This document shows, in pieces, positions 15,839-59,652 of a stretch of 64,000 nucleotides of DNA (position 1 is the first letter of the stretch; every line of letters starts with the position of its first letter). The stretch covers positions 5,387 to 69,386 of the forward strand of contig JABGVJ010000099.1 of assembly GCA_018646105.1 (NCBI GenBank), read 5' to 3'. Origin of the DNA: a bacterium (lineage in GTDB: Bacteria > Margulisbacteria > Marinamargulisbacteria > JABGVJ01). Under the pieces are notes generated by a model that worked only from the letters and a program-made list of their open reading frames with translations, had not been told where the DNA came from and did not search any database. The translations under genes were made by a program, and so were the position numbers.

Positions 15839-15847
15839 GGGGGGGGG
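15839..15847. repeat. Poly-G tract (G9) in the divergent hppA/purE intergenic region
   Basis: Counted directly. Embedded in the inverted repeat TTGAGGG...CCCTCAA. Confidence 0.8.
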
Positions 15848-27536: not shown

Positions 27537-27625
27537 ATGATACTTTATAAAAAGTTGTGGATATTATTAATATAGGAAATACCCATATGCTTACGTGAAA
27601 TGGACTGAAAACCGTAATATGTATG

Positions 27626-29930: not shown

Positions 29931-29934
29931 TTTT

Positions 29935-30954: not shown

Positions 30955-30984
30955 ATACTTACCTCCAAAAAATTTAAATTATAT

Positions 30985-41676: not shown

Positions 41677-43812
41677 ATGTTACAAGCAATAGTAAAAAAA
41701 GGTAAAGTTTTTGCTGAGAAAGTTTCTGCACCAGTTGTATCTAAAAATATGGTTTTAATAAAAGTAGTGAATAGTTGTATTTCAGCTGGAACTGAAATTA
41801 GCGGAGTTAAAGATAGTGGGACATCCCTAATTAAAAAGGTTTTAGACAAGCCGGAGCAATTAGCAAAGGTCGTGGATATGGTTAGACAGCAAGGATTTTG
41901 GGATACATATGAAAAGATTAAAGGGAAATTAGAGATAGGTGTGCCTACAGGATATTCGATTTCTGGGGTTGTTATGGGAGTGGGCGAAGGTGTGTCTGGA
42001 TTTAAAACCGGAGATGAAGTAGCGGCCGCAGGTGCGGGATTAGCTAATCATGCTGAATATGTAAATATTCCAGAAAATTTGGTGATGAAAATGCCTAAAG
42101 GAATGAACTTTAAAGAAGCATCTACAGTGACTTTGGGTGGGATAGCAATGCAGGGAGTGAGAAGAGTAGATTTGAGATTGGGGGAATATGCGGTTGTGGT
42201 TGGGGCTGGTATTTTAGGGCTTTTAAGCATCCAGATGTTAAAGTTAGCGGGAGTTAGGGTAGCAGTAATTGATTTAGATGAAAAAAGGCTAGAGATTGCT
42301 AAGGAATTAGGAGCTGAAATAATTTTAGATCCGGTTAAGACAGATACGGTGAAAGAAATTGAAAATTGGGCTAATGGATATGGGGCGGATGCCGTTTTGT
42401 TTACAGCGGCGACTTCTAGTAATGAACCATTATCCCAAGCTTTTCAAATGTGTAGAAAAAAAGGGAAAGTGGTTCTAGTAGGTGTGTCTGGAATGGAAAT
42501 TAAAAGAGAAGATATTTATGCTAAGGAACTTGATTTCCAAGTTTCTACCTCATATGGTCCTGGAAGGTATGATAAAAATTATGAAGAAAAAGGTCTTGAT
42601 TATCCATATGCTTATGTGAGGTGGACGGAAAATCGTAATATGAGAGAATATTTAAGGCTAGTACGAGATGGACATATTAAATTAGATAAAATGATTAATG
42701 CGGTTTATCCAATAGAGAAAGTAACTGAAGCATTTGAATCTTTGCAGGATAAGGCGAATAAACCGTTAATGGTTATTTTGGATTATGGACAGGTAGATAA
42801 AGAAAAAATTAATAGTTATTTAAAACAGGATAGAAAAATTTTTGTAAATAATATACCACTTAAAAAAGACATTATAAATGTGGCGCTTGTGGGAGCAGGT
42901 GGGTTTGCTACCGGAATGCATTTACCTAATATACGAAAGTTGAAAGATAAATATAGATTATATTGTGTAATGAACAGAACAGGGCATAAAGCAAAAGCTG
43001 TAGCTGAACAATATAAAGCGAATTATGCAACCACGAATTATGAAGATGTATTGAAAGATAAAAATGTAGATTTAGTGTTAATAGCTACCAGGCATGACAG
43101 TCACGCAGATTTAACAATAAAGGCGCTGAAAGCAGGTAAACATGTTTTTGTAGAAAAACCTTTAGCAACCACGCAAGAGGAATTGGAAAGAATAATTGCT
43201 TTTTATGACAGTAACGAATTTAAGTGCAAGCCAGTTTTGTTAACGGGCTTTAACAGAAGGTTTAGTAAATATGCACAAGAAATAAAGAAATATACAGATA
43301 AAAGGATAAACCCTTTATTTATTAGTTATAGAATGAATGCTGGTTTTATACCTTTGGATCATTGGGTACATGAAGATGGCGGTAGAATTGTAGGTGAAGG
43401 ATGTCATATTATTGATTTGATGAGTTTCTTTACAGGATCTAAGATAGTTTCTATTAGTTGCGAAGAAATAACTCCAGTAAATGAGGCAATCAGTTTTAGT
43501 GATAATAAAGCGATTATATTGAAATATGAAGATGGTTCTGTAGCTAATATTAATTATTTTGCTATTGGTAGTAAAGAATATCCTAAAGAGTATATGGAAG
43601 TGCATTTTGATCAAAAAACAATTGTGCTTGATGATTATAAAGCATTGAAAGGATATGGTGTTAAAATTAAAGAAATAACAACAGCCCAAAGTGAAAAAGG
43701 TCAGTTTGAAGAGTTGGAAAGATTATACGAAATATTAAGAGGAGATAAGCAAGATTGGCCTATAGAGTTGTGGGATATGGAGCAGACAACGAGGGTGGGG
43801 ACTTTTAAATGA
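41677..43812 (+). CDS. Two-domain oxidoreductase: N-terminal Zn-dependent MDR alcohol/polyol dehydrogenase fused to a C-terminal Gfo/Idh/MocA NAD(P)-oxidoreductase
   Basis: GVVMGVGEGV and GAGILGLLSIQMLKLAG (MDR family), then VALVGAGGFATGMHLPNI (Gfo/Idh/MocA Rossmann fold); 711 aa. GC is visibly higher than in its neighbours. Confidence 0.65.
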   Translation: MLQAIVKKGKVFAEKVSAPVVSKNMVLIKVVNSCISAGTEISGVKDSGTSLIKKVLDKPEQLAKVVDMVRQQGFWDTYEKIKGKLEIGVPTGYSISGVVMGVGEGVSGFKTGDEVAAAGAGLANHAEYVNIPENLVMKMPKGMNFKEASTVTLGGIAMQGVRRVDLRLGEYAVVVGAGILGLLSIQMLKLAGVRVAVIDLDEKRLEIAKELGAEIILDPVKTDTVKEIENWANGYGADAVLFTAATSSNEPLSQAFQMCRKKGKVVLVGVSGMEIKREDIYAKELDFQVSTSYGPGRYDKNYEEKGLDYPYAYVRWTENRNMREYLRLVRDGHIKLDKMINAVYPIEKVTEAFESLQDKANKPLMVILDYGQVDKEKINSYLKQDRKIFVNNIPLKKDIINVALVGAGGFATGMHLPNIRKLKDKYRLYCVMNRTGHKAKAVAEQYKANYATTNYEDVLKDKNVDLVLIATRHDSHADLTIKALKAGKHVFVEKPLATTQEELERIIAFYDSNEFKCKPVLLTGFNRRFSKYAQEIKKYTDKRINPLFISYRMNAGFIPLDHWVHEDGGRIVGEGCHIIDLMSFFTGSKIVSISCEEITPVNEAISFSDNKAIILKYEDGSVANINYFAIGSKEYPKEYMEVHFDQKTIVLDDYKALKGYGVKIKEITTAQSEKGQFEELERLYEILRGDKQDWPIELWDMEQTTRVGTFK

Positions 43813-44234
43813 ATATAGGCGTTAATTTGAAAGTTTTTTTAATAAAGATGGGAAAGCAGTTTGTTAAATTTTCTATTAATGGGGGGTTTTGTGCAGGTGT
43901 TGAATTTTTAGGGTTTTGGTTTTTTATATATTTTGGAAAAAATTATATGGTTTCTCAAATTTTTTCGTATAGTATTAGTATGTCGCTAAATTTCATTTTA
44001 AATCGATTTTGGACCTTTTCGTTACGAGCGGAGATTAAACAATTAGAAGCTTTTAAATTTTTAGTAGTGAATATAATAACTATGGTATCAATGCTTTTTT
44101 TAATATATATTTTTAAGGATAGAATGAATTTAAATTTATTTGCTAGTAAGATTTTAGCTACAAGTATTTTGATGTTTTTTAATTTTTTTTGCTATAAATT
44201 TTGGGTTTTTAAAAGAAATTTTGTAGAAGGGTAA
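43809..44234 (+). CDS. GtrA-family small membrane protein
   Basis: 141 aa, 4 TM helices, GtrA-like. Confidence 0.55.
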   Translation: MNIGVNLKVFLIKMGKQFVKFSINGGFCAGVEFLGFWFFIYFGKNYMVSQIFSYSISMSLNFILNRFWTFSLRAEIKQLEAFKFLVVNIITMVSMLFLIYIFKDRMNLNLFASKILATSILMFFNFFCYKFWVFKRNFVEG

Positions 44235-45440
44235 ATGTTTATGTTTTCTTTACAAACTAAAAAGTCTATGGCAAAGGCTTTATTAACAAAAAATTCTCCT
44301 TTTTATATTCAATTTTATATTTCTAAATATTGTCATTTAAAATGTAAAATGTGTAATATTGTGGAAGCTAATGCAGATGTTACGCCTTTTAAAAAAGAAC
44401 ATATAGAAAAAATAGCAGATAATTTAGTTAAAATAGGGGCAGGTGTGATCCTTTTGACAGGAGGAGAACCTTTTTTACGGCCAGATATTGATGAAATTGT
44501 GAGGGTTTTTAAAAGCAAAAATTTAGATGTGAGAATGCAAACAGCTGGATTAATTGAACAAAAAGCAAAAATTGAAAAATGTGTGGAAAATGGAGCGAGA
44601 GATATAAATATTAGTTTAGATTCTTTAGATGAAAATTTATCTGATTATATTAATGGAGTGAAAGGTTCTTGGAAAAAGGCTATACAATCTATTTCTTTAG
44701 TGTCTAAAACGTTTCCCAAAAAAGATTCTGTGTGTGCGCTTGGTTGTGTTTTGTCTAATTATAATATAGATGAAATTGAAGCAGTTTTGGAATTTGCTAC
44801 TAAGATTGGTTGGTGGCTATCATTAGTACCAGTACATATTAATGAAGAAGACTACCCCTTGAATTTTAGAGGTTATGATAAATATTTTAAAATTCCGGAA
44901 AGCAAATTTTTTCAATTAAAAGCTTTAATTGAAAGATTGAAAAAGAAAAAAAGAGCAGGATTTAATTTGTTTGATTCAGATGATTATTTGGATTCTATTT
45001 ATCATTTTATAACAACTGGACATCCTAATTGGCGGCACAAAGGCGTTTGCGATACTCCTAATTTGTATTTTGTTATATTACCCGATGGTAGGTTTGCTCC
45101 TTGTTGTGATTATAGGTTTGACGAGGATATTTATGTGTATGATGAAGATTTTCCTGAAATTTATAAAAGTAAAGGATTTAGAAAAAAAATAAAAGCAATT
45201 GCGAAAAAATGTCCAGGGTGTAATTTTGGCAGTTTTCCGGAAATGACTTTGTCAGCAAGGTCTTTTTCAACAATTAAGGAACGTATTTTGTTACAAAGCA
45301 AAGCAAAAAAAGCTGGTTTAAGACCATTGCAAGAGAAAGCAGTTTTAGAGATTATTGCGAATATTAAAGGAAAATATGAGATTTATCATAAAAAAAATTA
45401 TTCTAAATTTAGAGATAAAAAAGTATGTATCAAAAATTAA
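44235..45440 (+). CDS. Radical-SAM enzyme with a Cys-rich C-terminal (SPASM/twitch-like) domain
   Basis: CHLKCKMC (CxxxCxxC), LTGGEPFLRPD, and a C-terminal Cys cluster (C..PCC...CPGC). Confidence 0.65.
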   Translation: MFMFSLQTKKSMAKALLTKNSPFYIQFYISKYCHLKCKMCNIVEANADVTPFKKEHIEKIADNLVKIGAGVILLTGGEPFLRPDIDEIVRVFKSKNLDVRMQTAGLIEQKAKIEKCVENGARDINISLDSLDENLSDYINGVKGSWKKAIQSISLVSKTFPKKDSVCALGCVLSNYNIDEIEAVLEFATKIGWWLSLVPVHINEEDYPLNFRGYDKYFKIPESKFFQLKALIERLKKKKRAGFNLFDSDDYLDSIYHFITTGHPNWRHKGVCDTPNLYFVILPDGRFAPCCDYRFDEDIYVYDEDFPEIYKSKGFRKKIKAIAKKCPGCNFGSFPEMTLSARSFSTIKERILLQSKAKKAGLRPLQEKAVLEIIANIKGKYEIYHKKNYSKFRDKKVCIKN

Positions 45441-47866
45441 CCTCTATCATTAAATATATTAAAAATAAAGAAGTGTCTTTTGCACAGGCTGTAATAAAGC
45501 ATTATATAGTGCCTCAAGATGTTTTGGTTAAGAATATACCATCGGATGCGGTGGTATTAGATATAGGATGTGGAGAGGGAATTTTACTAAATGTTGTTGG
45601 GTATATGTTGTCTAAAAGTAAATGTATAGGTATTGATATTGATCGAAAAAAAATAGATATAGCTAAAAGAAATGCTAATCAAAATGTGGAGTTTAGGTGC
45701 CAGAATTTTTTTGACTTGGATTCTGATTTTAAAGTTGATGTAGTAATCATGAATGATTTTGTGCATCATTTTTCTTATTCTAAACAATTAGAGCTAATGG
45801 ATAACGTTGTAAGAAGAATTAAGCCAGGTGGTAAATTATTTTTAAAGGAAGTAGATCAATTAGATAAGCTAGATAGGGGTGTAACTACGTTTTTTGATAA
45901 AAAGCTTTATCCTAATGATGATTTATCTTATAGAACGAAAGATGAATGGTTAGTTTTTTTAAAGAGGTTAGGGATAACAAATGTTAAGGTAGAAAAAATA
46001 AAAAAAATGTGGCCGGCATCTAATACTTTATTGATAGCTAAATTACCGTTAGATAGAGATGTCGGATATGTTGATAATACAAAAAAAATTCAAGAAAGAA
46101 CGTTAGCTGCTAGAAAAAATAAACTAAAAACGGTTTTTGTAACAGGGGCAACAGGGTTTATTGGTAAATATGTTATAGACTATCTTTTAGAAAAAGGAAT
46201 GGCTGGAAATTCTGTAAGCTTAGTTTTGTTAACTAGAAATATGGATAACATTCCCAAAAAATATTTACATAATGAAAATATTGAGTGGCTAGTAGGGGAT
46301 TTGCATGATATGGAGCCACTTAAAGAATGTTTAGTGGAAATCGATTATGTTTTTCATTTAGCTGCAGAGGTTAAATTTTTTAAAGGTGCGGATGTTTGGA
46401 AAAATAATTATTACGGTACACTTTGTTTACTAGAAGCTTTAAAGGAAGTGAAGATAGAGCGATTTGTATTTGCAAGTACGATAGGCGCTTTTGATCGATT
46501 ACCGTCAGACTCTTGTACTCAACCATTAGATGAAAAGGCCGAGCCTAATCCGTTATCGGAATACGGTAAGTCAAAACTTGAAGCAGAAAGAGCGGTTAGA
46601 AATTCTGGTTTGAATTATACTATCGTGAGGATTCCTTGGGCGTATGGGAAAGGAATGACGCCGGATACCCATGTTAGAAATTTGATGCAGGCAGTGTATC
46701 AAAAGAAAATAGCTACCTGGTTTAATTTCCCAGGTAAAGTAAGTATAGTTGCAGCTCGAGATTTAGCAAGAGCTTTCATTTTTTTAGCAGAAAATAAGAA
46801 AGCTTTAAATGAGATATATTTTGTAACTGATGGGCAACCTGTTTCTTTAGGTGATTTATTTAAATTAATGGGAGATATTATTGGGACAAAAGCTGGATTT
46901 ATAAATATACCTAAAATTATTACTAAAATAGCACAGAGATTAAGGCGTTTTTTTCCCTTAGTTATTCAAAATTTAAATAGTGATGTTTTAACTGCTACAA
47001 ATGAAAAGGTTTTTAATGTTGGGTTTCAGATTGAAACTAGTAAAAGAGAAGGTTTACAGATTTTAGCGGAAGATGTCGGTATATTATCATCGGTTTTAAG
47101 AGAAAATGAAAAGCTGATAACTATTGTAACCGGAGCAGCCTCTGGTATCGGCAAGGCTTTGGCATCTAAGTTATCAGAATTAGGGCATCGCTTATTATTG
47201 ATAGATGTTCAAAAAATTAATGTTGAAAATTTTTCTAATCAGGTAAGGGTGGATTTTTTAAATTTAGATCTAACTAAAGTAGAATCATTAAATTTTATAG
47301 CAGATTATTTACAGAAAAATAAATATGTGGTGGACTGGGTTTTTAACAATGCAGGTATTGGCATACGAGGAGAGTTTGCAGAATTGAAATTTGAAGCACA
47401 GAAAAAAGTAATAGATTTGAATTGCGTGGTGCCTACTTTTTTATCTCATTTAGCTTTAAATCATTTTAAAAAATTTAATAGAGGTAGAATTATTAATATA
47501 GCCTCTTCTTCTGCTGTACAACCTCTTCCTTTGATGAGTGTTTATGCGGCCTCTAAATCTTATATTAAATCTTTTACGGAAAGTATAACCGGAGAAATGT
47601 TGGCTAAAAAAAATATTAGAATAACGACTGTTATTCCTTCTGGTACAGATACGGGGTTTCAAAAGGCTTCTGGTGTTAAAAAGAATGAAAATGAAAAATT
47701 GATGTCGGCAGAAGAAGTTTCTCGAAAAATTATAGATGCTGTTTTTAAAAATAAAAATATTGTTTACGTTGGTTTTCTAGGTAAAATAATGGCGATTTTA
47801 GCGAATATTTTACCGATTAATTGGCAAATTAAACTATGGTATACATTAATGAAAAAAATGAGGTGA
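45425..47866 (+). CDS. Tri-domain fusion: class I SAM methyltransferase, then NAD-dependent epimerase/dehydratase (extended SDR), then classical SDR
   Basis: LDIGCGEG motif; VFVTGATGFIGKYV with YGKSK (YxxxK); VTGAASGIGKAL with YAASK (YxxxK); 813 aa. Confidence 0.65.
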   Translation: MYQKLTSIIKYIKNKEVSFAQAVIKHYIVPQDVLVKNIPSDAVVLDIGCGEGILLNVVGYMLSKSKCIGIDIDRKKIDIAKRNANQNVEFRCQNFFDLDSDFKVDVVIMNDFVHHFSYSKQLELMDNVVRRIKPGGKLFLKEVDQLDKLDRGVTTFFDKKLYPNDDLSYRTKDEWLVFLKRLGITNVKVEKIKKMWPASNTLLIAKLPLDRDVGYVDNTKKIQERTLAARKNKLKTVFVTGATGFIGKYVIDYLLEKGMAGNSVSLVLLTRNMDNIPKKYLHNENIEWLVGDLHDMEPLKECLVEIDYVFHLAAEVKFFKGADVWKNNYYGTLCLLEALKEVKIERFVFASTIGAFDRLPSDSCTQPLDEKAEPNPLSEYGKSKLEAERAVRNSGLNYTIVRIPWAYGKGMTPDTHVRNLMQAVYQKKIATWFNFPGKVSIVAARDLARAFIFLAENKKALNEIYFVTDGQPVSLGDLFKLMGDIIGTKAGFINIPKIITKIAQRLRRFFPLVIQNLNSDVLTATNEKVFNVGFQIETSKREGLQILAEDVGILSSVLRENEKLITIVTGAASGIGKALASKLSELGHRLLLIDVQKINVENFSNQVRVDFLNLDLTKVESLNFIADYLQKNKYVVDWVFNNAGIGIRGEFAELKFEAQKKVIDLNCVVPTFLSHLALNHFKKFNRGRIINIASSSAVQPLPLMSVYAASKSYIKSFTESITGEMLAKKNIRITTVIPSGTDTGFQKASGVKKNENEKLMSAEEVSRKIIDAVFKNKNIVYVGFLGKIMAILANILPINWQIKLWYTLMKKMR

Positions 47867-47875
47867 TCAAGTTCT

Positions 47876-48823
47876 ATGAATAAAGAAAAATTAGATATAG
47901 TTGTTCCTGTTTATAATGAGGAAGAAAGTATAGAAGAGTTATTAAAGCGTTTGTTTGTTTTAAAAGAGAAAATGAATTTTCTCGATATAAATTTTATTTT
48001 TATTAATGATGGGTCTAAAGATCGCACTTTGGAAATTTTAAATAAATATGCGCAACAAAATAATTTTGTAAAAATTATTAATTTTAGTAGGAATTTTGGG
48101 CATCAGTTTGCGTTAACAGCAGGAGTGGATCATTCAGAAGCTGATTTTGTAGCGATCATTGATGCTGATTTGCAAGATCCTCCAGAATTGATTGAAGATA
48201 TGTATAATGAGGCTAAAAAAGGTTGTGACATAGTTTATGGGAAAAGGTTAGAAAGAAAAGGGGAAACTATTTTTAAAAAAATTACAGCCAAGTGTTTCTA
48301 TAAATTTATGAGAATGATGGTAGATGTGGATATTCCGGCTGATACCGGAGATTTTAGATTAATAAACAATAAGGTGCTTAATTATTTAAAGCAGATGCAG
48401 GAAAAGCATAGATTTATTAGAGGAATGGTTCCATGGATAGGTTTTAACAGTACGCCTTTATACTATAATCGAGATATTAGGTATGCTGGAGAAACAAAGT
48501 ATCCTTTAAACAAAATGTTGAAATTTGCTTTGGATGCAATATTTTCTTTTTCTAATAAGCCATTAAAACTAGCTAATCATATAGGTTTTTTTGCTATATT
48601 TATAGGTGTTTTTGGTAGTTTTTTGATGTTGTATTTTTTCTTTTTTACTGATTTTAAAGTACCTGGTATTACAACTACTATTTTAACCATACTTATTATG
48701 GGTGGTATTCAGATTTTAATGTTGGGTATTATAGGTGAATATATTGGTCGGATTTTTGAGGAAGTAAAAGCGCGACCTTTATATGTAATAGAAAGTACTA
48801 AAAATTTTATAAAAAGAGGATAA
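47876..48823 (+). CDS. GT2-family polyprenyl-phosphate glycosyltransferase (GtrB/ArnC/DPM1-like)
   Basis: LDIVVPVYNEE, DGSKD and DADLQDPP motifs; C-terminal TM helices. Confidence 0.75.
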   Translation: MNKEKLDIVVPVYNEEESIEELLKRLFVLKEKMNFLDINFIFINDGSKDRTLEILNKYAQQNNFVKIINFSRNFGHQFALTAGVDHSEADFVAIIDADLQDPPELIEDMYNEAKKGCDIVYGKRLERKGETIFKKITAKCFYKFMRMMVDVDIPADTGDFRLINNKVLNYLKQMQEKHRFIRGMVPWIGFNSTPLYYNRDIRYAGETKYPLNKMLKFALDAIFSFSNKPLKLANHIGFFAIFIGVFGSFLMLYFFFFTDFKVPGITTTILTILIMGGIQILMLGIIGEYIGRIFEEVKARPLYVIESTKNFIKRG

Positions 48824-48826
48824 TCA

Positions 48827-49642
48827 ATGAAAAAAGTTAACTCTGGAGAAAAAATATTACATAAGGAAGAATCTTTTCATGATGATTGGGCGGCTAGTGT
48901 GGATATTGATAGAGTTGCAGTTGATGAGTTTTTTGAGGCTTGTACGGCTCCTGAAAATAGATACATCATGCAAAAATTGGGAGACTTGAATGGAAAAAGA
49001 ATATTGGAAGTTGGTTGCGGTTTAGGCGAGGCTTCTGTATATTTCGCTAAAAAAGGTGCGGATGTAGTTGCTACAGATATTTCTTCTGGAATGCTTGAGG
49101 TAGTAAAAAAATTAGCGGCTTTACATAACGTATCCTTGACCACTAAACAGGCTTATTCGCATGAATTAGATTTTGTTGATAATTCATTTGATGTTGTGTA
49201 TGCAGCAAATCTTTTACATCATATAGACTTAGAACCGACTTTAAAGGAAGTGAAAAGAGTTTTAAAAAAAGGGGGCGTATTTATATCTTGGGATCCATTA
49301 GCGCATAATCCGATGATTAATGTATATAGAAAAATGGCTATGAAAGTAAGAACTGATGATGAACATCCGATACAAATGAAACAATTAAAAATTTTCAAAC
49401 AATTTTTTTCTAAAATAGATATTAAAACGACTTGGTTTTTTACTTTATGGATTTTTTTAAAGTTTTATTTTATTGATAGAGTTGATCCAAATAAAGAGCG
49501 ATATTGGAAGAAAATAATAACAGATCATAAAAAACTAGAAAAAATGTATTATAGGCTGGAGAAGATAGATAATTTATTTTTGAAACTTTTTCCTTTTATG
49601 AGAAGGTTTTGTTGGAATATTGTGGTAATAGGAGAGAAATAG
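48827..49642 (+). CDS. Class I SAM-dependent methyltransferase
   Basis: ILEVGCGLGEASVYFAKKGADVVATDIS motifs; 271 aa. Confidence 0.65.
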   Translation: MKKVNSGEKILHKEESFHDDWAASVDIDRVAVDEFFEACTAPENRYIMQKLGDLNGKRILEVGCGLGEASVYFAKKGADVVATDISSGMLEVVKKLAALHNVSLTTKQAYSHELDFVDNSFDVVYAANLLHHIDLEPTLKEVKRVLKKGGVFISWDPLAHNPMINVYRKMAMKVRTDDEHPIQMKQLKIFKQFFSKIDIKTTWFFTLWIFLKFYFIDRVDPNKERYWKKIITDHKKLEKMYYRLEKIDNLFLKLFPFMRRFCWNIVVIGEK

Positions 49643-49644
49643 AT

Positions 49645-50949
49645 ATGAATTTTTTAAAAAGTAATAATTTTTTTACTCTTTGTGCTATTTTGTTTTTTGG
49701 TGTATTTTTTTTCTTTTTTGTTAATATTTTTTTTACGCATAAATATAATCCGGAAAAATATTTGAACTCAAATTTAATAGAAATTGCAAAACAAAAATTT
49801 ATTGATAAAGGCTATGAAAATATTCATTTTGGATTGATGCCGGCAAGATATAGAACCTTAATTAAGGCTGTTAATGGATATGCGTCTTCAAAAATTTATT
49901 TGGTAGTTAAAGATAAAAAAAGTTTTAAGGCTTTAAATTTAGCAGATGATAAGGGCTTTTATTTTTTTGTTATAGTTTTGATGAATATTTTTAATCTGTC
50001 TTTAAATAAAGCTATAGATGTATTTTTTATTTTTTTATTTGCAGGGGCTTCAATTTCGGGAATGATAGGTGGAATGTTTCTGTACAAAAAATGGTTGTTA
50101 AGAATGATTTATTTAAGTAGTTTGATGTTTATTAATTTTATTGCAATTAGGGTAGGGGGGTTATATGTCATAAATGCTTTATTGGTAGTTGCTTTTTTTC
50201 CTTGGGTATTATGGCTTTTTGAAAGAAATAAAATAGATAAAATAACTTTTATAGTATTGTCTGCTATTGTTTTTTTTATTTCGATAGCTCATTTTGTGCG
50301 AGTTTATTCAGGTGTTGGGCTATTATTATTTATGCTAATTTTATTATTTTATTTTGTTAAGAGCTCTTTGAAAAAAAAATGTTTGTTAATTTTTATTCTT
50401 CTTATGTTCGGTTTGCTTCCTGTGTTATTTTTTAATTCGTTGTTTAGTGAAAGAGATCTTTTTTTGAGAAAAAATGTAGCTAATTATACAAAACAAACAA
50501 ATATTGAAGGACATTATTTTTGGCATAATGCATATATAGGATTGGGATATCTTGAGAATCCTTATGTGTCAGCATATAAGGATGAAGTTGGTATAGCTAA
50601 AATCAAATCAGTAGATCCAAACGTTATTTTTGCATCTATGCAGCATCAAAAAATTTTAAAAGAAGCTTTTTTTGAATTAATTTTTAAACATCCACTATTT
50701 TTTATGCGTAATGTTTTTGCAAAATTTGGAGTTATTTTATTTTATTTTTTGGCTTCCGCAAATATTGGTTTATTTTTTGCTTATTTTTATAGGAAATCTA
50801 AAATACTTGAAGTTAGTTTTTTGGTAGCTTTGGGATTTAATGCTTTATTCGGAATATTGATAGTTCCATATTCAACTTATTTGCTTGGATTCATAGCTTT
50901 TGCCACTATGTATGGAATGGTAAGTATAAATTATTATTTAGAACAATGA
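49645..50949 (+). CDS. Polytopic membrane protein; possibly a GtrC-like/polymerase-like glycosyl-modifying membrane protein. Start set at MNFLKS.
   Basis: About 11 hydrophobic helices; no motif recognised. Confidence 0.3.
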   Translation: MNFLKSNNFFTLCAILFFGVFFFFFVNIFFTHKYNPEKYLNSNLIEIAKQKFIDKGYENIHFGLMPARYRTLIKAVNGYASSKIYLVVKDKKSFKALNLADDKGFYFFVIVLMNIFNLSLNKAIDVFFIFLFAGASISGMIGGMFLYKKWLLRMIYLSSLMFINFIAIRVGGLYVINALLVVAFFPWVLWLFERNKIDKITFIVLSAIVFFISIAHFVRVYSGVGLLLFMLILLFYFVKSSLKKKCLLIFILLMFGLLPVLFFNSLFSERDLFLRKNVANYTKQTNIEGHYFWHNAYIGLGYLENPYVSAYKDEVGIAKIKSVDPNVIFASMQHQKILKEAFFELIFKHPLFFMRNVFAKFGVILFYFLASANIGLFFAYFYRKSKILEVSFLVALGFNALFGILIVPYSTYLLGFIAFATMYGMVSINYYLEQ

Positions 50950-51953
50950 AAATAAAAGAGATAGAGCTAAAAAAGGATAACAAGTCACCTGTTTTTGCCT
51001 TCCCAAAGTATCTTGATTTTTGTTCCTCTGCTTATGGTTGGGTAGGGGGGGGGGTAAACAATGAGTTGAAATTTATTTTGCCATATACTTTAAAATCTAA
51101 ACTATGTTTTCGTTGGGTTATGTTTTATACGGCTACAATTTGTTTGGATGAAAATTTAACTATAGATCAGGAAAAAGATTTTTTAAATAGTGTAGTTGAG
51201 TTTTTTAAAGCTGAAAAAAAAATTGATTTTATATGTTCTCCGCCTGTTAATGCTGTTTTTAATGTTTATCCTAGTGAAGCAGTATCTGCTGCTTTTGGAA
51301 CATATCTTATTGATTTGAGTTTATCTGAAGAGATTTTATGGGATAAATTGCATTCTAAGCATCGGAATGTAATTAGAAAGGCTATGAAGGATCAAGTAAA
51401 TATAAAGAGAGGGAAAGAATATCTAGATTTAGCTTATAAACTTATCAAAGAAACACAGTTACGATCAGATAAAGGATTTTCTAGTATAGAAAAATTTAAA
51501 GAATTAATAAATTCTTTAGAAAATAACGTTGAAATATTTGTTTCATTTTATAAAGATAAACCACAAGGCTGCGCTGTTTTTTTGTATAGTGATTATGCTG
51601 TTTACTATCGTCATGGAGGAAGCATAGAGAGGCCTTTTACAGGTTCGTTAAATTTGCTTCATTGGGAAGCAATTAAGTATTTTAAGGCAAAAGGTGTGTT
51701 GAGATATGATTTTCTTGGCGCGAGAATAAAACCAGACAAAGGTTCTAAGTTAGAAGGCATACAACGATTTAAAAGTCGGTTTGGCGGAGAATTAAGGCAA
51801 GGGTATTTATGGAAATTGGTTGTAAGAAAATGGAAATATAGGTTATTTCAATTTATTTTTGCTATTAAAAATGGGACGTTTGAAGAAGATATTATTGATC
51901 AAGAAATAAAAAAGGCTAAGAAAGACAATGAAAAAAATATTGCTGACTTGTGA
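50946..51953 (+). CDS. FemAB-family (GNAT-fold) transferase-like protein, PEP-CTERM-locus-type. It contains an internal G10 tract.
   Basis: Size (335 aa) and pattern resemble FemAB-related polysaccharide-locus proteins. G10 at 51045-51054 is read as GGG GGG GGG. Confidence 0.4.
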   Translation: MKIKEIELKKDNKSPVFAFPKYLDFCSSAYGWVGGGVNNELKFILPYTLKSKLCFRWVMFYTATICLDENLTIDQEKDFLNSVVEFFKAEKKIDFICSPPVNAVFNVYPSEAVSAAFGTYLIDLSLSEEILWDKLHSKHRNVIRKAMKDQVNIKRGKEYLDLAYKLIKETQLRSDKGFSSIEKFKELINSLENNVEIFVSFYKDKPQGCAVFLYSDYAVYYRHGGSIERPFTGSLNLLHWEAIKYFKAKGVLRYDFLGARIKPDKGSKLEGIQRFKSRFGGELRQGYLWKLVVRKWKYRLFQFIFAIKNGTFEEDIIDQEIKKAKKDNEKNIADL

Positions 51954-52896
51954 TACGGAAGTAGGATTGCTTGAAGTTCCTATTAGGAAGGATGCTTTTG
52001 AAGTTTTTATTGAAGGAAAAATAAATTCTGAAGAAGTAGGCTATAAATTTATAAATAAAATTGCTTCAAAATATAAAGCTAAGGTTGAGCATTTTGTAGA
52101 TATTTATGCTTATGAAAAAGTTGGAGAAAAAAAGTTTGCAAATCTTTGTAATAATATTTTAGAAATGGGGCATAATATTTCCTTACATACGCATCCTTCT
52201 CATAAATATGACAGCAAAAGAAAATTTATGCATCAATATAGCTTGGCTGAACAAAAAGAGATTATTGAACATGGCAAAGAAAAAATTCATGAGTGGACTA
52301 AAAAAGAAGTAAGAGTGCATAGAGCTGGTGGTTATGGTATGAATTTAAATACGTTAAGAGCATTAAAATGCCATGATTTTAAAATAGATTGTTCTTATTT
52401 TAAAGGTCATCAAAATTGTTTGTATCAAAAAAAAGTATTTAATAGGCTGTTTTTACAAGAAGGTATTTTAGAAATACCAGTAAGCGTTTTTCAGAATAAT
52501 ATTAATTATTGGCCAGGAGCGATAAAGAGAAAAGTGATGACTAAGTTAGATTTTCGTTATGGGGCTGATACAAATCAAATTTTGAGAGTGATAGAGCAGG
52601 CGCCTGATAATGTTTTGATAGTGTTGTTTTTACATAGTTTTAATTTTTTGAATAGATTTTATGATTTTAAGTTAAAAAGGTTTAAGAGAATTACCATAAA
52701 TAGAAAACTTATTATAGAATATGAGAAACTTTTGGCTGGCATTAAAGATAGGCTTGATTGTGAATTTATAAGTTTAGATCAAATAGATAATTCTGATTAT
52801 GCAGATGACTATTTAGTTGATATTAATACAGCTAGATTTATGGGGAATGCTTTATTAGGTAAAGTAAATAATTTATTTCGGAATAGATATGTTTGA
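51928..52896 (+). CDS. Putative polysaccharide deacetylase-like (divergent CE4/DUF3473-like) protein
   Basis: N-terminal LLTCDTEVG and His-rich HNISLHTHPSH motif. Weak evidence. Confidence 0.3.
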   Translation: MKKILLTCDTEVGLLEVPIRKDAFEVFIEGKINSEEVGYKFINKIASKYKAKVEHFVDIYAYEKVGEKKFANLCNNILEMGHNISLHTHPSHKYDSKRKFMHQYSLAEQKEIIEHGKEKIHEWTKKEVRVHRAGGYGMNLNTLRALKCHDFKIDCSYFKGHQNCLYQKKVFNRLFLQEGILEIPVSVFQNNINYWPGAIKRKVMTKLDFRYGADTNQILRVIEQAPDNVLIVLFLHSFNFLNRFYDFKLKRFKRITINRKLIIEYEKLLAGIKDRLDCEFISLDQIDNSDYADDYLVDINTARFMGNALLGKVNNLFRNRYV

Positions 52897-54130
52897 AAAT
52901 TCGAGAATTTTATATTTACGAACTGTTTATTGGTTTGATTTAAAATGCGGAGGATCTGTAGGCCATACAGCGGGAGTTATCAATGCTTTGGATAAAAAGA
53001 TTGAATTAGATGTTGTTTCCAATGATGTATTATCAGAAGTAAAAAGAGAAATTGAAATTATTAAACCCATTAAATTGAAATTGGGTATTGATAAATTATT
53101 TAATTTGAGTGAAATTTTGTATTCAATAAAAATAATTAAATTTTTTAAAAAACCGGCGCTAAAAAAATATAAAGCTATTTATCAAAGATATTCGGGATAT
53201 TCCTTTGCAGGAGCTTATTTAGCTAAGAAATATCATATTCCTTTAATTTTGGAATTCAATTCTTCAGATGTTTGGAAAATAAAAAATTGGACAACCAAAA
53301 CTAATATTTGGCGATCGTTACTAAGAAATTTAATCCGGAAATTTATTAGGTTACCTATAGTTAAATGTATTGAAAGTTACAATATTAGAAATGCGAATTT
53401 AATTGTGGTTGTTTCCCAGGTTTTAAAGGGTTTTTTAGTGGATTATGGAGTTAAGCCAACTAAAATATTAGTCAATCCAAATGGTATTAACCCGGAAATT
53501 TATACGCCAGAGATAAATGGAGGCAAAATAAGAAAAAAATATTTTTTGGAAGATAAAATAATAATAGGATTTATAGGTACTTTTGGACAATGGCATGGTG
53601 TTTGCGAAATGGCTAGGGCGATTATTAGGTTTTATGAGAAAAATCTTGAAAAAGCAGATAATACCAAGTTTTTATTAATTGGGGATGGTATTTTGTTTAA
53701 TGAAGTGCAGAATCTAATAAATAACTCTCCATATAAAGATAGTGTTATTTTTACAAGGGGCGTGCCACAAGAAGAAGCACCAAAATATTTGGCAGCTTGT
53801 GATATTTTTTTATCGCCGCATATAAAAAATCCAGATGGTTCTAAATTTTTTGGTAGCCCTACAAAGTTATTTGAATATATGGGTATGGGTAAAGCAATTA
53901 TTGCCAGTGATTTGGATCAAATTGGCGAAATTTTAGAACATAAGAAAACGGCTTATTTGGTTGAGCCAGGAAATATTGAGCAGTTAGCAGATGCTATTAA
54001 TATTTTATGTGAAGATGTAAAACTAAGAGATAGTTTAGGAGAAAATGCAAGAGAAGAAGTTGTGGCTAAACATACTTGGGATAAACACGCAGAGAATATT
54101 TTAGAGAAAATAAAAGGGTTAGAAAAATAG
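52889..54130 (+). CDS. GT4-family glycosyltransferase
   Basis: C-terminal GT-B donor-binding motif EYMGMGKAIIASD...GEIL...G; 413 aa. Confidence 0.7.
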   Translation: MFENSRILYLRTVYWFDLKCGGSVGHTAGVINALDKKIELDVVSNDVLSEVKREIEIIKPIKLKLGIDKLFNLSEILYSIKIIKFFKKPALKKYKAIYQRYSGYSFAGAYLAKKYHIPLILEFNSSDVWKIKNWTTKTNIWRSLLRNLIRKFIRLPIVKCIESYNIRNANLIVVVSQVLKGFLVDYGVKPTKILVNPNGINPEIYTPEINGGKIRKKYFLEDKIIIGFIGTFGQWHGVCEMARAIIRFYEKNLEKADNTKFLLIGDGILFNEVQNLINNSPYKDSVIFTRGVPQEEAPKYLAACDIFLSPHIKNPDGSKFFGSPTKLFEYMGMGKAIIASDLDQIGEILEHKKTAYLVEPGNIEQLADAINILCEDVKLRDSLGENAREEVVAKHTWDKHAENILEKIKGLEK

Positions 54131-56251
54131 ATGAATGTTTTAGAAAAAATTGTTAGAACGCCAATGCCAATATTAATAAATAAATTGTCACATAAATTAT
54201 TTTTTAAATTTTTTGAATATAGAGATTTATATTTTGATACAAGGATTAGTTTTGATGTAGAAAAAATTCAAAAAAACTATATTGATATTTCAAAGTTGGA
54301 TTTTTCTAAAATAGATAAAAAAGTAGTTAAATATTTAATAGATATGTATTTAAATCATAGATTTGATTTTTTGGGTAGTGGTTGGGTGACAAATAGTTAT
54401 GATTCAAAAGTTTTGGGTCTTGAGCAGTATAGATATGAAATGAATGTGGAAATAGAAAGGTTTGATAAGGAAGGAAAGTGGCTTAATAAAATTATTTTGT
54501 CAAAACATTTGAAAAGGAGTAAAAAAATTTGGCAACAAGTTTCTGAAAATTATATTCCAATTGATTGGCAGAAAGATTATAAGAGTGGCTTTCGGTGGGA
54601 TGCTAGAAAATGGTATAAAAATCAGCAGATAGGAGATAAATTAGGATCTGATATTAAAGTTCCTTGGGAATTAGCGAGATTACAACATTTACCGCAAATG
54701 GCCATATTTTCATTGGTTTTACCTAATAAGAAAGATCAATTGATATTGGAATTTAAAAATCAAATTTTGGATTTTATAGCTACAAATCCCCCAAGAATGG
54801 GTTGTAATTGGACTTGCGCAATGGATGTTGGTATTCGAGTAGCTAATATGCTTGTGGCTTATGATATGTTTTTACAAATAGATAACAATGGAATTTTAGA
54901 TAATAAATTTAAACAGATTTTTGCTAATTCAGTATATGAGCATGGGGTTCATATAATGAGTAATTTGGAGAATGGACTAATCACCTATAATCATTATTTA
55001 GCAAACATAGTTGGCTTATTATTCGTTGTTGCTTACTTAGAGAAAACTAAAATAGTTGATCGGTGGTTAGGTTTTGCAGTTAAGGAACTAATAAGAGAGT
55101 TTGATAAACAGTTTTATGAAGATGGTAGTAATTTTGAAGCGTCAACTAATTATCATAGATTAAGTGGTGAATTGATGATATATGGGGCAGCTTTTGTTTT
55201 AGGATTAGAGAAAGATAAAGCGGAAAATGTTTTTCCAGAATGGTTTTGGGAAAGATTATGGCGGGTAGGGAAGTTTACAGTAGACCTCACAAAAAAAACA
55301 GGTGAAATTTCTCAAATTGGAGATAATGATAGTGGTCGTTTTTTTAGGTTTTCACCAAGTGGGCTGTTTTTAACAAATAAACAGGCTGAAGAACAATATC
55401 TAAATTTAGAAGGTTATAATAAACTGATTAATAAACCAGCAGAACTTTTTTGGGATAAAAATATTTTAAATCATGCTACATTTGTGTCAGCTATAGATGG
55501 TTTATTTAATGATGAAAACTTTCAGAATTATAGTCATAATTTCCCTTTGGAAAAAAGTATCATAGAGGCTTTGGCAAAAGGTAAAAAGGTAAAGATTAAA
55601 GATGTAAAAGAAAGAGAAGTTAAGATTGAAAGCCAGGGGCTAGATTTAGAGAAATATGAATATCATAAAGAAACAGTTATTAAGCCATCCAGCAAGAAAA
55701 AGACTTCTTTAGATCAGAATTTAGTTTTAATTTCATATTCTGATACAGGTATTTATATTTTTAAATCAGATAGAATTCATATGACAATTTCAGCAGGACC
55801 AAATGGGCAAAATGGTAATGGTGGGCATGCGCATAATGACAAATTATCTTTTGAGCTTAATATAGATGGCGAAGATTTATTTGTGGATCCTGGTACGTAT
55901 CTTTATACGCCTTTACCAGAAAGAAGAAATGAGTTTAGAAGCGTGAAAGTTCATAATACTTTGGTGGTGGCTGATGAAGAACAGAATGATTTTAGAGATC
56001 TTTTTGGCTTAGTGAAAGAAGCTGAATGTATCATAAGGAAAATAAGCAATAAGGAAATAATAATAGAATTAAATTATAAAGATGTTATTTGTTTGAGAAA
56101 AATATGTATTATGGAAGATAAAATTTTAGTAAATGATTTTGCTAATAAAGAATTTAAAGTTAATTTTGTTGATGATTATTTATATTCTAATGGATATGGT
56201 AAGTTTTTTAAAAAAAGGAATGAGTTTGAAAAAAATATTATTTGTAACTAA
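54131..56251 (+). CDS. Heparinase II/III-like (alginate-lyase-superfamily) protein
   Basis: NWTCAMDVGIRVANM and the C-terminal GHAHNDKLSFEL heparinase II/III motif; 706 aa. Confidence 0.55.
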   Translation: MNVLEKIVRTPMPILINKLSHKLFFKFFEYRDLYFDTRISFDVEKIQKNYIDISKLDFSKIDKKVVKYLIDMYLNHRFDFLGSGWVTNSYDSKVLGLEQYRYEMNVEIERFDKEGKWLNKIILSKHLKRSKKIWQQVSENYIPIDWQKDYKSGFRWDARKWYKNQQIGDKLGSDIKVPWELARLQHLPQMAIFSLVLPNKKDQLILEFKNQILDFIATNPPRMGCNWTCAMDVGIRVANMLVAYDMFLQIDNNGILDNKFKQIFANSVYEHGVHIMSNLENGLITYNHYLANIVGLLFVVAYLEKTKIVDRWLGFAVKELIREFDKQFYEDGSNFEASTNYHRLSGELMIYGAAFVLGLEKDKAENVFPEWFWERLWRVGKFTVDLTKKTGEISQIGDNDSGRFFRFSPSGLFLTNKQAEEQYLNLEGYNKLINKPAELFWDKNILNHATFVSAIDGLFNDENFQNYSHNFPLEKSIIEALAKGKKVKIKDVKEREVKIESQGLDLEKYEYHKETVIKPSSKKKTSLDQNLVLISYSDTGIYIFKSDRIHMTISAGPNGQNGNGGHAHNDKLSFELNIDGEDLFVDPGTYLYTPLPERRNEFRSVKVHNTLVVADEEQNDFRDLFGLVKEAECIIRKISNKEIIIELNYKDVICLRKICIMEDKILVNDFANKEFKVNFVDDYLYSNGYGKFFKKRNEFEKNIICN

Positions 56252-57362
56252 AGATTTTTTACCAGCGATAGGTGGTGGGATTAGAAGAATAGAAGCTCTT
56301 TATAAGGCTTTTTTGGTGAATAAAGGGCTTACTTTAGAAGTAGTGACGGCTGAAAGTAGAGCGCAAGGGCGATACAAGGATGTGCAGTATATCTCACAAT
56401 TATTATTTAAGGATAAGATATCATCTGGAGGTGGATTATCGAGGTTAAATAATAAAGTTAAGATTAAGTTTTTTGATAAAGCTTTAATTGGTTGGTTACC
56501 AAATGTTATTTTTAGAATTTTTTATAAAAAATATGATTTGGTTTATTGTACGGTTCCTACTTTTACTAATTTATTAATAGGTTTTTTATATAAATTGGTA
56601 AGAATGAATAAGCCTAAGTTGATAGTTGAGTATCGAGATATGTATAGTTTTAATCCTGAATATAAAGATGGTTTTAGTAAGAAGTTTTTGCAAATTATAG
56701 AAAAATTAATTTTAAGAAATTGTGACTATATTGTAGTTACTACTCAGGGGATGAAAAATGTTTTTTCTGCTTTTATAGAAGATAATAAGATATGGATGAT
56801 GAGAAATTATGTAAGCAAAGATGATTTAAATATTATTAAAAAATTAGATAGAGATGAGTATGATAAGCGTTATTTTCATATTGGTTATGTAGGTACTTTG
56901 AATACAGGTCGCCATCCAGAAGTTTTTTTAGGTATGTTGAGGCTGAAAGTAAAGAACAAAGAAAGTGTTTTGCATTTTGTAGGAATAACAGAAGCTCAAA
57001 AGAAGGGCGTTTTAGAAATAATGGAAAACCGTGGCTTAGATAATACGAAAGTGATTTTTCATGGTAAAGTAAGTCGCTTAATTGCTTTGAAATATATGAA
57101 GTCCTTGGACGCTCTTTTTTTGATAATTAATAAGAAGGCTTTAATTAAAGATGGCTATGGTATTCCAGGGAAATTGTATGATTATATTCAAGCAAATAAT
57201 AATTTGTTTGCGGATTCAGTTACTTTTGACAATTTAAGTAGTGAGTTTAATTTAGAAATTATTGAACAGTATGATGATTATATTAATTTTTCTTTAAACG
57301 ATAGTACCTTATTGAATGATAAGTTGGAAATGTTTATAGATAAATTGGTTAAGGAGCTTTAG
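56220..57362 (+). CDS. GT4-like glycosyltransferase. Start set at MSLKKILFV (ATG at 56220, RBS AAGGAA); it overlaps the previous gene by 32 nt.
   Basis: FLPAIGGGIRR N-terminal GT4 pattern. Confidence 0.55.
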   Translation: MSLKKILFVTKDFLPAIGGGIRRIEALYKAFLVNKGLTLEVVTAESRAQGRYKDVQYISQLLFKDKISSGGGLSRLNNKVKIKFFDKALIGWLPNVIFRIFYKKYDLVYCTVPTFTNLLIGFLYKLVRMNKPKLIVEYRDMYSFNPEYKDGFSKKFLQIIEKLILRNCDYIVVTTQGMKNVFSAFIEDNKIWMMRNYVSKDDLNIIKKLDRDEYDKRYFHIGYVGTLNTGRHPEVFLGMLRLKVKNKESVLHFVGITEAQKKGVLEIMENRGLDNTKVIFHGKVSRLIALKYMKSLDALFLIINKKALIKDGYGIPGKLYDYIQANNNLFADSVTFDNLSSEFNLEIIEQYDDYINFSLNDSTLLNDKLEMFIDKLVKEL

Positions 57363-58556: not shown

Positions 58557-59652
58557 TATTCCGGCACCTTATCGGGAAAAGGTCCATGAAAATGTGTCAA
58601 AATATTTTTGGGATGAATATTTGGTGGTTTATGCAGATAAGAAAGAATCAAATAGAGAATGGCAGTTTGATGATGGTAATTATAAAAAAATATTTTTAAA
58701 AAAGTTTTTATTTGAATATAAAGAGAAATTTATTCATATAAATTTTGATGTTTGGACTATATTAAATAAATATAATCCTCAAGTAGTCATAACCTGTGGT
58801 TTTAATCCTACTTTTTTAATGGCTTTTTTATGGGCTAAATTGAAACATAAAAAACATATCTGTATGACTGATGGCGGGGTTGGCTCAGAGAAGAGATTAA
58901 GTTTTTTGCATAGATTAGTAAGAAAAGTAGTTTATAAGTATTCAGATGCCTTTATAGGGGCGAGTGATAAAAGTTTAGATTTGTATAGATGTTATAGGTG
59001 TGATGAAAACAAATTATTTAAAAGTTGTTTGTGTATTGATAATGATTACTACGCTAAATTTATAAAGAAAATGGAAGATAGAAAATATGATATTATGTTT
59101 TCCGGTCGTTTTGTTGATGGTAAAATGCCCATGTTTTTTGCGGAAATTTGTGATGAATTAAATAAGAAAATAATAGATTTGAAAGTGTTAATTATTGGAG
59201 ATGGAGAATTAAAGTCTGTTTTTCTAGATAAATTACAAGAATATAAAATAAATTTTGATTATCCTGGATTTATAGATCAAAAAAAATTACCGTTATATTA
59301 TGCTGACAGCAAAATTTTGTTGTTTCCTACGAAGACGGATACTTGGGGTATAGTGGCTAATGAAGCTTGCGCTGTAGGGACCCCGGTAATTACGATGGAA
59401 TCCGCGGGAGTATCTGGAGAATTAGTAAAACATGATTATAATGGATATATTCTTGATTTGAATATTGAAACTTGGGCTAAATATAGTGAGTCACTCTTAA
59501 AAGACAATAAACTTCATAGTATTTTTTCTAAGAATAGTTTGGAAGAAGTAAAAAATTATAGTTATAGAAGGGCGGCTAAAGGAATTATAGATGCGATTAA
59601 TTATGTTAAAATTAAAAATAAAAAGAGGAGTAAAAAACGATGGATAAATTAG
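58534..59652 (+). CDS. GT4-family glycosyltransferase
   Basis: EACAVGTPVITMESAGVSGELV GT-B motif; 372 aa. Confidence 0.7.
   Translation: MKYVMVTNIPAPYREKVHENVSKYFWDEYLVVYADKKESNREWQFDDGNYKKIFLKKFLFEYKEKFIHINFDVWTILNKYNPQVVITCGFNPTFLMAFLWAKLKHKKHICMTDGGVGSEKRLSFLHRLVRKVVYKYSDAFIGASDKSLDLYRCYRCDENKLFKSCLCIDNDYYAKFIKKMEDRKYDIMFSGRFVDGKMPMFFAEICDELNKKIIDLKVLIIGDGELKSVFLDKLQEYKINFDYPGFIDQKKLPLYYADSKILLFPTKTDTWGIVANEACAVGTPVITMESAGVSGELVKHDYNGYILDLNIETWAKYSESLLKDNKLHSIFSKNSLEEVKNYSYRRAAKGIIDAINYVKIKNKKRSKKRWIN

Follow-up and report, generated by a model that had tools for sequence, protein, structure and literature searches.

A homopolymer of ten guanines (the G10 tract) occurs early in a gene encoding a FemX-like transferase in the surface-polysaccharide locus of an uncultured marine bacterium. 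The gene occupies positions 50946-51953 (+) of the 64,000-nucleotide stretch of contig JABGVJ010000099.1 (GCA_018646105.1) analyzed here, which we call the window, and encodes a protein of 335 amino acids (aa). Loss or gain of a single G brings a stop codon into frame at or shortly after the tract, and the differences among assemblies of the same organism were concentrated at this very site. We considered that the tract might act as a working phase-variation switch, a reading toward which the evidence tips slightly; whether the composite picture holds in full, with a FemX-type enzyme whose decoration of a glycan is turned on and off by the tract, is in our judgment evenly balanced.

The G10 tract and its reading frame

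51045-51054 (+): homopolymer of ten G, spanning codons G34-G36 and the first base of V37; candidate slippage site
51055-51057 (+): TAA stop of the -1 (G9) frame, adjoining the 3′ end of the tract
51062-51064 (+): TGA stop of the +1 (G11) frame, three codons past the tract
51120-51122 (+): internal ATG (M59), the start used by gene callers on frameshifted contigs, giving a 277-aa product

Translation of the open reading frame (ORF) showed that the tract is read as GTA GGG GGG GGG GTA, corresponding to V33-G34-G35-G36-V37, which confirmed the ten consecutive G and the V-GGG-V reading given in an earlier note on this DNA. Tract lengths of G7, G10, and G13 are in frame; with G9 or G12, TAA follows directly 3′ of the tract, and with G8 or G11, TGA is reached three codons on. 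The products of G8, G9, G11, and G12 are predicted by frame translation to end after 36 to 39 residues, in agreement with the earlier statement that slippage by one base would truncate the protein after about 35 codons. M59 is the only downstream start; it has no Shine-Dalgarno-like sequence, and a product initiated there would miss most of the first GNAT sheet, as judged from the secondary structure of the AlphaFold2 (AF2) model. The gene has two of the features by which contingency genes are recognized, namely a G/C homopolymer of at least 7 to 8 nt within the ORF (cut-offs as in PMC6321876) and a predicted loss of the product on a length change of one base in either direction. The placement of the tract early in the ORF, with an immediate stop in either alternative frame, supports a switch.

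The tract is located within a motif conserved in the protein family, YGW[ILV]GG[FY], in which conservation reaches at least 90% at G31, W32, and G35, while the third Gly of the tract stands where the family usually has Phe or Tyr. Orthologues align over the full length from residue 1, and since the homologues align in this way, coding sequence covers the tract and all of the first 58 residues. In the NCBI entries MBT3261241.1, MBT3581961.1, and MBT4551686.1 (269 aa), translation was annotated from TTG (L67), omitting the 66 conserved N-terminal residues together with the tract; because of this start, chosen on DNA identical to the window, the tract is invisible in the deposited proteins. The 269-aa form was consequently rejected as a frameshift allele, being a different start choice on the same DNA.

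The window contains 31.7% G+C (20.1% G and 11.7% C on the + strand), and 0.005 runs of at least ten G are expected per 64 kb when bases are drawn independently from this composition, or 0.03 if a first-order Markov model is used. The window has two tracts of nine or more G, compared with expectations of 0.03 for the G10 and about 0.12 for a G9, and the histogram of G-run lengths was bimodal (16 runs of five G and seven of six, then a gap at lengths 7 and 8, and single runs of nine and ten). The tract could still be incidental, a way for this strain to encode the conserved Gly-Gly and one additional Gly, in which case the gene would be stably on, the shorter forms described below would be Illumina or assembler errors, and slippage would be a mutational burden. 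In line with this, GGG is a common Gly codon in the window, with a share of 22.7%, and GGG-GGG pairs occur at the expected rate, showing no avoidance. Against it stands the rarity of the arrangement itself: three consecutive GGG have a probability of about 0.012 given the peptide, and three GGG followed by a codon starting with G remain at about 0.01 for the peptide and about 0.03 per window.

Ten G is a common gap length, which the run matches exactly, and poly-G is a known artefact of two-color chemistry; a filled gap or a sequencing artefact absent from the genome had thus to be weighed. Opposing this, the same G10 with identical flanks was found in 13 other contigs that were read (European Nucleotide Archive, Logan, and NCBI assemblies), recovered from many samples by different assemblers (SPAdes, MEGAHIT-style, Logan, and those of NCBI metagenome-assembled genomes, MAGs). 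In all, the run was recovered in more than 15 assemblies, HiSeq 2000 data among them. The reading frame and the conserved motif continue unbroken through the tract. One sample carrying the organism, SAMN05224481 (Saanich Inlet station SI02, 200 m, September 2009), was run on a HiSeq 2000, as were the Saanich libraries, and the four-color chemistry of this instrument rules out a two-color artefact. Both a gap filler and a two-color artefact were rejected on these grounds, an artefactual origin is very improbable, and the tract was confirmed as present in the genome.

Two further candidates were set aside: programmed ribosomal frameshifting is unneeded, as the G10 allele is already in frame, and a G-quadruplex was ruled out because one G run alone cannot form one. 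A promoter and terminator scan of 47000-56500 was uninformative (50 sites versus 53 expected), and an Rfam search of the window gave no match. Across the whole window, the GC skew is about 0.27 on the + strand, nearly all genes lie on that strand, and every long G/C homopolymer reads as G on the coding strand.

Tract length among assemblies and in related loci

For 17 contigs, with an aligned total of about 92 kb, identity to the window was 100% outside the tract and its 50-nt surroundings, and all differences between assemblies were concentrated in the tract or no more than 50 nt away. The variant contigs were the following:

L001 (ERZ4201001, 4.2x): G10 followed by AAAC in place of TAAAC; net -1
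L002 (ERZ4200997, 5.7x): G10-T; upstream of it, a single C is missing at a distance of 45 nt and four bases are substituted within 50 nt; net -1
L024 (scaffold_13060, SAMN05224481): begins 9 nt 5′ of the tract and reads G9-TAAAC; net -1
L122 (scaffold_5048, SAMN05224481): terminates in G10-AAA; net -1

Contig L017 was grouped with L001 as a net -1 variant. Net -1 forms were therefore present in three samples (L001, L002, and L024/L122) and in the output of two assembly pipelines, with L024 as the only clean G9. The sequences G10-AAAC and G9-TAAAC have equal length and differ only by G or T at the tenth position, and the form in L001 can be read either as a T>G miscall in a G9 allele or as a deletion of T. 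A T>G miscall after poly-G is a familiar sequencing error, and both sequences fit a G9 allele with such a miscall. The same combination would explain why the SAMN05224481 assembly breaks at the tract, where both of the contigs that meet are net -1. Contigs ending within 170 nt of the tract were L014, L024, L121 (plus one similar contig), and L122. The 277-aa forms come from real net -1 contigs, neither of which is a pure length change, and were accordingly rejected as pure G-length alleles. Two scans of metagenome contigs, one for a tract of variable length and one for the right flank, gave no match.

The second long tract of the window served as a control:

15839-15847: G9 tract, intergenic between divergent genes, the H+/Na+-pyrophosphatase gene (13513-15741, -) and purE (15933-16454, +)

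No such defect was seen at this tract in any same-strain contig that was read, among them one from ERZ4201001. Six same-strain contigs and a strain with 99.7% identity (L028) carry an identical G9 run, while in L029 (JGI 3300022916) a segment of about 40 nt containing it was replaced. A hairpin flanking it (TTGAGGG...CCCTCAA) was no better than shuffled sequences (z = -1.1).

Taken as observed, the contigs suggest real tract-length heterogeneity at G10, and Illumina homopolymer error in assemblies of 4-6x is also consistent with the -1 forms. Several points weigh against a working switch. About 20 contigs from many samples carry G10 in frame, 17 of them encoding the exact 335-aa protein and three being NCBI MAG contigs; no G11 or G8 occurred in the contig collection, and the 90% protein cluster contains only four sequence forms. 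Every variant contig is either of low coverage (4-6x) or a contig terminus, the sole clean G9 sits 9 nt from a contig end, and the cluster of four substitutions and an indel upstream of the tract in L002 looks like post-homopolymer sequencing error. Tract lengths were taken from consensus assemblies, which hide length mixtures within a sample, and several of these assemblies may share raw data and hence not be fully independent. All contigs are clonal, and therefore conservation of the tract over evolutionary time cannot be judged from them. Finally, a genome about 40 times the size of the window is expected to hold about one chance G10, the visible sequence being 64 kb; a G10 is unlikely within 64 kb, yet no surprise once per whole genome.

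Many of these observations are what an incidental tract would produce, as is the recurrence of the G10-AAAC form, which is not a pure length change. On the other side, net -1 forms came from three samples and two pipelines, the G9 control was clean in the same data, the run is absent from the orthologues examined, and a G10 is physically slippage-prone in every bacterium studied (PMC6321876). On balance, we regard an incidental tract as a real but lesser possibility. The earlier note had proposed that a length fixed in all reads would speak against phase variation; approximated on consensus assemblies, the outcome was mixed, with about 20 contigs at G10 pointing to a fixed length and the net -1 forms of three samples pointing away from it.

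The origin of the tract was examined by comparing the motif across related loci of GTDB genomes; the genome studied here did not figure among the GTDB representatives matched. A pattern located the motif in 34 of the 80 loci, with a longest G run of six at that place, and because no orthologue examined exceeds G6 at this site, the tract arose in this lineage. In a subset of the 80 loci, the neighbors were of glycan type (glycosyltransferase family 4 [GT4], DegT, or deacetylase-like). The block comprising the Fem-like, deacetylase-like, GT4, and heparinase-like genes was syntenic in seven uncultured Campylobacter genomes (L106-L112, for example L110 3626-8585), with identities of about 50% for the deacetylase-like, 52% for the GT4, and 49% for the heparinase-like protein; the Campylobacter Fem-like gene has no poly-G, and its N-terminal domain is strongly diverged.

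In related Fem-containing glycan loci of other phyla, G9 or G10 tracts were found in genes for DegT-like aminotransferases and Acyl_transf_3 proteins. Homologous Acyl_transf_3 O-acyltransferases carry poly-G at the same site just past the start in a Dorea MAG (L090 8074-8083; G10, out of frame, the longest ORF requiring G9) and in a Lachnospiraceae MAG (L096 8170-8178; G9, in frame), a pair that by its sequence has the appearance of a phase-variation signature in gut Firmicutes glycan loci. G10 runs also occur inside DegT-family aminotransferase genes of Spirochaetia, Lachnospiraceae, and a Pseudomonadota MAG (L074 1377-1386, L096 6560-6569, and L070 3358-3367), at positions that differ among the three genes; these genes adjoin the Fem-like gene (L074 and L070) or lie about 1.6 kb downstream of it (L096), and the L074 copy, full-length only with G9 or G12, looks switched off. 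Such glycan loci commonly hold slippage-prone tracts, which is no proof of switching in the window.

The transferase and its polysaccharide locus

50946-51953 (+): FemX-like tandem-GNAT transferase gene, 335 aa, assigned by Pfam, family profile, AF2, and Foldseek
51771-51773 (+): codon of K276 (in RFKSRFG), aligned with Lys305 of Weissella FemX and invariant in 35 family members

The protein matched PF02388 (FemAB) with 49.7 bits (cutoff 24) and PF13480 (Acetyltransf_6) with 25.3 bits (cutoff 22). Both pass, in keeping with the FemAB-like label of the earlier note; TIGR03019, which it had also named for a profile search, did not hold, the score of 29.8 bits lying far below the cutoff of 260.35, so the protein is not a member of that family. 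A profile of the family searched against the Protein Data Bank retrieved FmhB (6snr, 3e-13), Sbb17/Sba18 (5e-10), FemX of Weissella viridescens (1e-6), and also FemA. The AF2 model (predicted local distance difference test score, pLDDT, 95.9) featured two tandem GNAT-like domains and no coiled-coil arm. With Foldseek, Sbb17/Sba18, FmhB, FemX, and FemA ranked first (E 5e-17 to 7e-13; TM 0.64-0.67 versus FemX, FmhB, and FemA), followed by the aminoacyl-phosphatidylglycerol synthase domains of MprF (about 1e-10) and tandem GNATs that use coenzyme A (CoA; about 1e-7). Residues F275-K276 align with F304-K305 of FemX, in which Lys305 is the catalytic residue (PMC12945691), so that the family score, the two domains, and a catalytic Lys preceded by Phe all place the protein among the FemABX enzymes. 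We hold the transferase assignment with high confidence.

The family comprises at least 749 homologues from many phyla, the nearest being 54% identical, and it occurs in glycan loci of many phyla. No murein genes were found near the gene, which lies in a Wza/Wzc/Wzx locus, and a peptidoglycan acceptor is not indicated; judged by sequence, the enzyme is Fem-like in mechanism and not a peptidoglycan bridge enzyme. As for the acyl donor, the ranking of structural neighbors makes aminoacyl-tRNA an even prospect.

The donor might instead be an acyl-CoA or another acyl compound, the switch remaining the same and the enzyme being an N-acyltransferase of the HfsK/CelD-like Acetyltransf_6 type. The PF13480 score and the CoA-using tandem GNATs found by Foldseek fit this alternative, as does the lack of an established donor for HfsK, the only FemX-like protein with an exopolysaccharide link to have been studied (PMC5362036), a point that also weighs against assuming aminoacyl-tRNA. 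The alternative is contradicted by the best sequence and structure matches (FmhB, FemX, FemA, and Sbb17/Sba18, then MprF), which are all aminoacyl-tRNA-dependent, and by the CoA enzymes being some 8 to 10 orders of magnitude worse in E-value. Moreover, the family shows no variation in the Phe-Lys pair, which in FemX contacts the aminoacyl-adenosine (PMC12945691). Overall, we view an acyl-CoA-type donor as rather unlikely.

The gene belongs to a large locus, and its placement in a polysaccharide locus by the earlier note was borne out by the Wza, Wzc, and Wzx context:

19617-62908 (+; genes at 27030-32619 on the minus strand): surface-polysaccharide locus
49645-50949 (+): 434-aa multi-pass membrane protein with no family match; its stop overlaps the Fem-like start (ATGA)
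51928-52896 (+): carbohydrate esterase family 4 (CE4)/NodB-fold deacetylase-like gene, sharing 26 nt with the 3′ end of the Fem-like gene
52889-54130 (+): GT4 glycosyltransferase, in the block syntenic with Campylobacter
54131-56251 (+): heparinase II/III-like protein, in the block syntenic with Campylobacter

The segment 19617-26978 encodes a Wza-like protein, a CpsB-type phosphatase, a Wzc-like protein, Bac_transf, WecB, and WecC, and 32814-62908 is a tightly packed array of co-oriented genes. In order, the array encodes a Wzx-like flippase, PGA_cap, a methyltransferase, an AsnS-like protein, a GT4-like protein, DegT, a dehydrogenase fusion, GtrA, and a radical SAM protein; then a methyltransferase-epimerase-short-chain dehydrogenase fusion, an ArnC/PgfS-like glycosyltransferase family 2 (GT2) protein, a methyltransferase, the 434-aa membrane protein, and the Fem-like enzyme; and finally the deacetylase-like protein, GT4, the heparinase II/III-like protein, two unknowns, GT4, DUF4956, and a CotH/beta-helix protein. 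No exosortase or PEP-CTERM match was obtained among the approximately 40 window ORFs scanned.

The deacetylase-like protein scored 21.2 bits with PF01522, under the cutoff of 23.1; several relatives at 40-54% identity carry this domain, and weak matches to ArnD and TIGR03006 and a profile match to 3rxz (1.5e-4) were obtained. Its AF2 model (pLDDT 91.5) has a NodB-type fold, with Foldseek matches at E 4e-9 to 3rxz, Helicobacter pylori HP0310, and Salmonella ArnD (8t0j), then to many CE4 enzymes. Residues D9, H87, and H89, a tentative candidate for an Asp-His-His metal triad, were invariant, although the two His are spaced as H-x-H.

Several other features of the locus were observed, two unusual fusion ORFs among them. 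The dehydrogenase fusion (41677-43812, 711 aa) joins a zinc alcohol dehydrogenase to a GFO/IDH/MocA oxidoreductase, and the protein of 813 aa at 45425-47866 joins an S-adenosylmethionine-dependent methyltransferase, an NAD-epimerase/dehydratase, and a short-chain dehydrogenase. The locus ends with an 859-aa protein (60329-62908) that combines a CotH kinase-like domain with a right-handed beta-helix and is preceded by the DUF4956 protein (59640-60332). Genes for the GtrA-like protein (43809-44234), the ArnC/PgfS-like GT2 (47876-48823), the membrane protein (49645-50949), and the ArnD-like deacetylase (51928-52896) are clustered, an arrangement that by analogy resembles a Gtr/Arn-type route, where a sugar on polyprenyl phosphate undergoes modification before being attached outside the membrane; this lipid-linked sugar might be the substrate of the Fem-like enzyme. 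For the Fem-like and deacetylase-like proteins (50946-52896), there were no relatives between about 55% and 100% identity, while for the housekeeping proteins compared (encoded at 785-2047, 13513-15741, and 18216-19502), namely seryl-tRNA synthetase (98% identical variant), histidyl-tRNA synthetase, and the pyrophosphatase, other contigs contribute one more close variant to each 90% cluster; the polysaccharide locus appears strain-specific in this part. The nearest named relatives of the seryl-tRNA synthetase were at most 70% identical and were spread over unclassified MAGs, Lentisphaerota, and Clostridiaceae.

Proposed switch and comparison with known systems

In the scheme that we infer, with its donor, acceptor, reversibility, switching rate, and selective agent, the product would be a cytoplasmic tandem-GNAT transferase of FemX type that N-acylates an amino sugar of a nucleotide-linked or lipid-linked (undecaprenyl-linked) polysaccharide precursor. 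The acyl group would most likely be an amino acid from aminoacyl-tRNA, and the acceptor amine would probably be exposed by the CE4 deacetylase-like product of the overlapping downstream gene. Slippage in the G10 tract during replication would remove or add one G, translation would stop 0 to 3 codons past the tract, and the enzyme would be off; the frameshift might also dampen the downstream deacetylase-like, GT4, and heparinase-like genes through translational coupling. A compensating slip would restore the frame, and a clonal population would then mix decorated and undecorated cells as a bet-hedge against phages or grazers that recognize the polysaccharide. The candidate put forward in the earlier note, a phase-variable decoration enzyme, is thus upheld for the enzyme and for the truncation, whereas switching is plausible but unproven. 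The most specific form of the scheme, in which a marine bacterium of an oxygen-minimum zone uses a poly-G switch to control tRNA-dependent aminoacylation of a polysaccharide at an amine freed by a dedicated CE4 deacetylase, is in our estimate improbable as a whole.

Repeat-mediated switching of glycan-modifying genes is textbook knowledge in Campylobacter, Haemophilus, and Neisseria. The mechanism is therefore a known one, and the case is notable for its host, an uncultured bacterium of anoxic Saanich Inlet water, and for the enzyme class, the FemX-type family of glycan loci being widespread and biochemically uncharacterized. If the switch is real, simple-sequence repeat phase variation of a surface glycan would be documented in an uncultured free-living marine bacterium, with phages or grazers rather than host immunity as the selective pressure. 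If the most specific form of the scheme holds, both this type of phase variation and Fem-type aminoacyl transfer would extend to environmental glycan diversification, presumably for defense against phages or grazers, and the DegT and O-acyltransferase genes with poly-G tracts in related loci (Spirochaetia, Lachnospiraceae, and other taxa) would point to a widespread, unappreciated "glycan phasome" outside pathogens. If tRNA-dependent aminoacylation of a polysaccharide precursor is true, Fem enzymes would gain a new class of acceptor. Should the tract be incidental, the finding would amount to a routine annotation of a FemX-like gene beside a deacetylase. ON:OFF ratios could be tracked in situ with the metagenomes, metatranscriptomes, and metaproteomes already collected in the Saanich Inlet time series (PMC5663217).

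Phase-variable poly-G tracts of Campylobacter have lengths that peak at 9 (53%) and 10 (26%), and 77% of them lie in ORFs, with C on the coding strand in 5% (PMC6321876). Like the contingency loci for the capsule, lipooligosaccharide, and flagellar glycan of Campylobacter jejuni, the window has a tract in the G9-G10 range on the coding strand of an ORF for non-essential surface-glycan modification, and a change of one base leads to immediate truncation. In contrast to this host-associated pathogen, the bacterium studied here is uncultured and free-living (Saanich Inlet, 200 m), its 64 kb show only two long G tracts, and switching is a proposal made from the sequence.

Phase-variable glycan acyltransferases include OafA of Haemophilus influenzae and PglI of Neisseria, which are membrane O-acetyltransferases. 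They share with the present gene a simple-sequence repeat inside a gene for acyl decoration of a surface glycan; their folds are different, the protein described here being a soluble tandem GNAT of FemX type that probably N-acylates an amine.

Among the enzymes of peptidoglycan synthesis, FemX (W. viridescens) and FmhB and FemA (Staphylococcus aureus) share the Pfam family, the tandem-GNAT fold, and the catalytic Phe-Lys pair with the predicted transferase, which at 335 aa and with no coiled-coil arm is closer to FemX than to FemA. It differs from all three in its low identity (12-16%), its Wzx/Wza/Wzc locus in place of a peptidoglycan context, and an N-terminal acceptor-binding domain with a conserved motif of its own. 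The systems described by TIGR03019 (pepcterm_femAB) and TIGR03006 (XrtA-system deacetylase) pair the same gene types in an exopolysaccharide locus, and an AsnS-like gene is present here as well, although the scores were 29.8 versus 260 and 16.2 versus 276 and the window has no exosortase or PEP-CTERM match.

The chemistry proposed here is that of Orf11, Sbb17, and Sba18, which carry out tRNA-dependent aminoacylation of the amino-sugar amine of streptothrisamine (PMC12945691). Sbb17 and Sba18 were also the best structural matches, but they belong to Streptomyces secondary metabolism, act on a small-molecule acceptor, and are 14% identical to the predicted transferase. In Caulobacter, HfsK is a FemX-like GNAT tied to an exopolysaccharide and has been proposed to acylate amines freed by the CE4 deacetylase HfsH (PMC5362036). 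There, control is exerted by cyclic di-GMP through a C-terminal extension, whereas here it would lie in a repeat tract; the likeness between the two systems, drawn from the published description, is the pairing of a deacetylase with a FemX-like enzyme, and in the window the two genes overlap.

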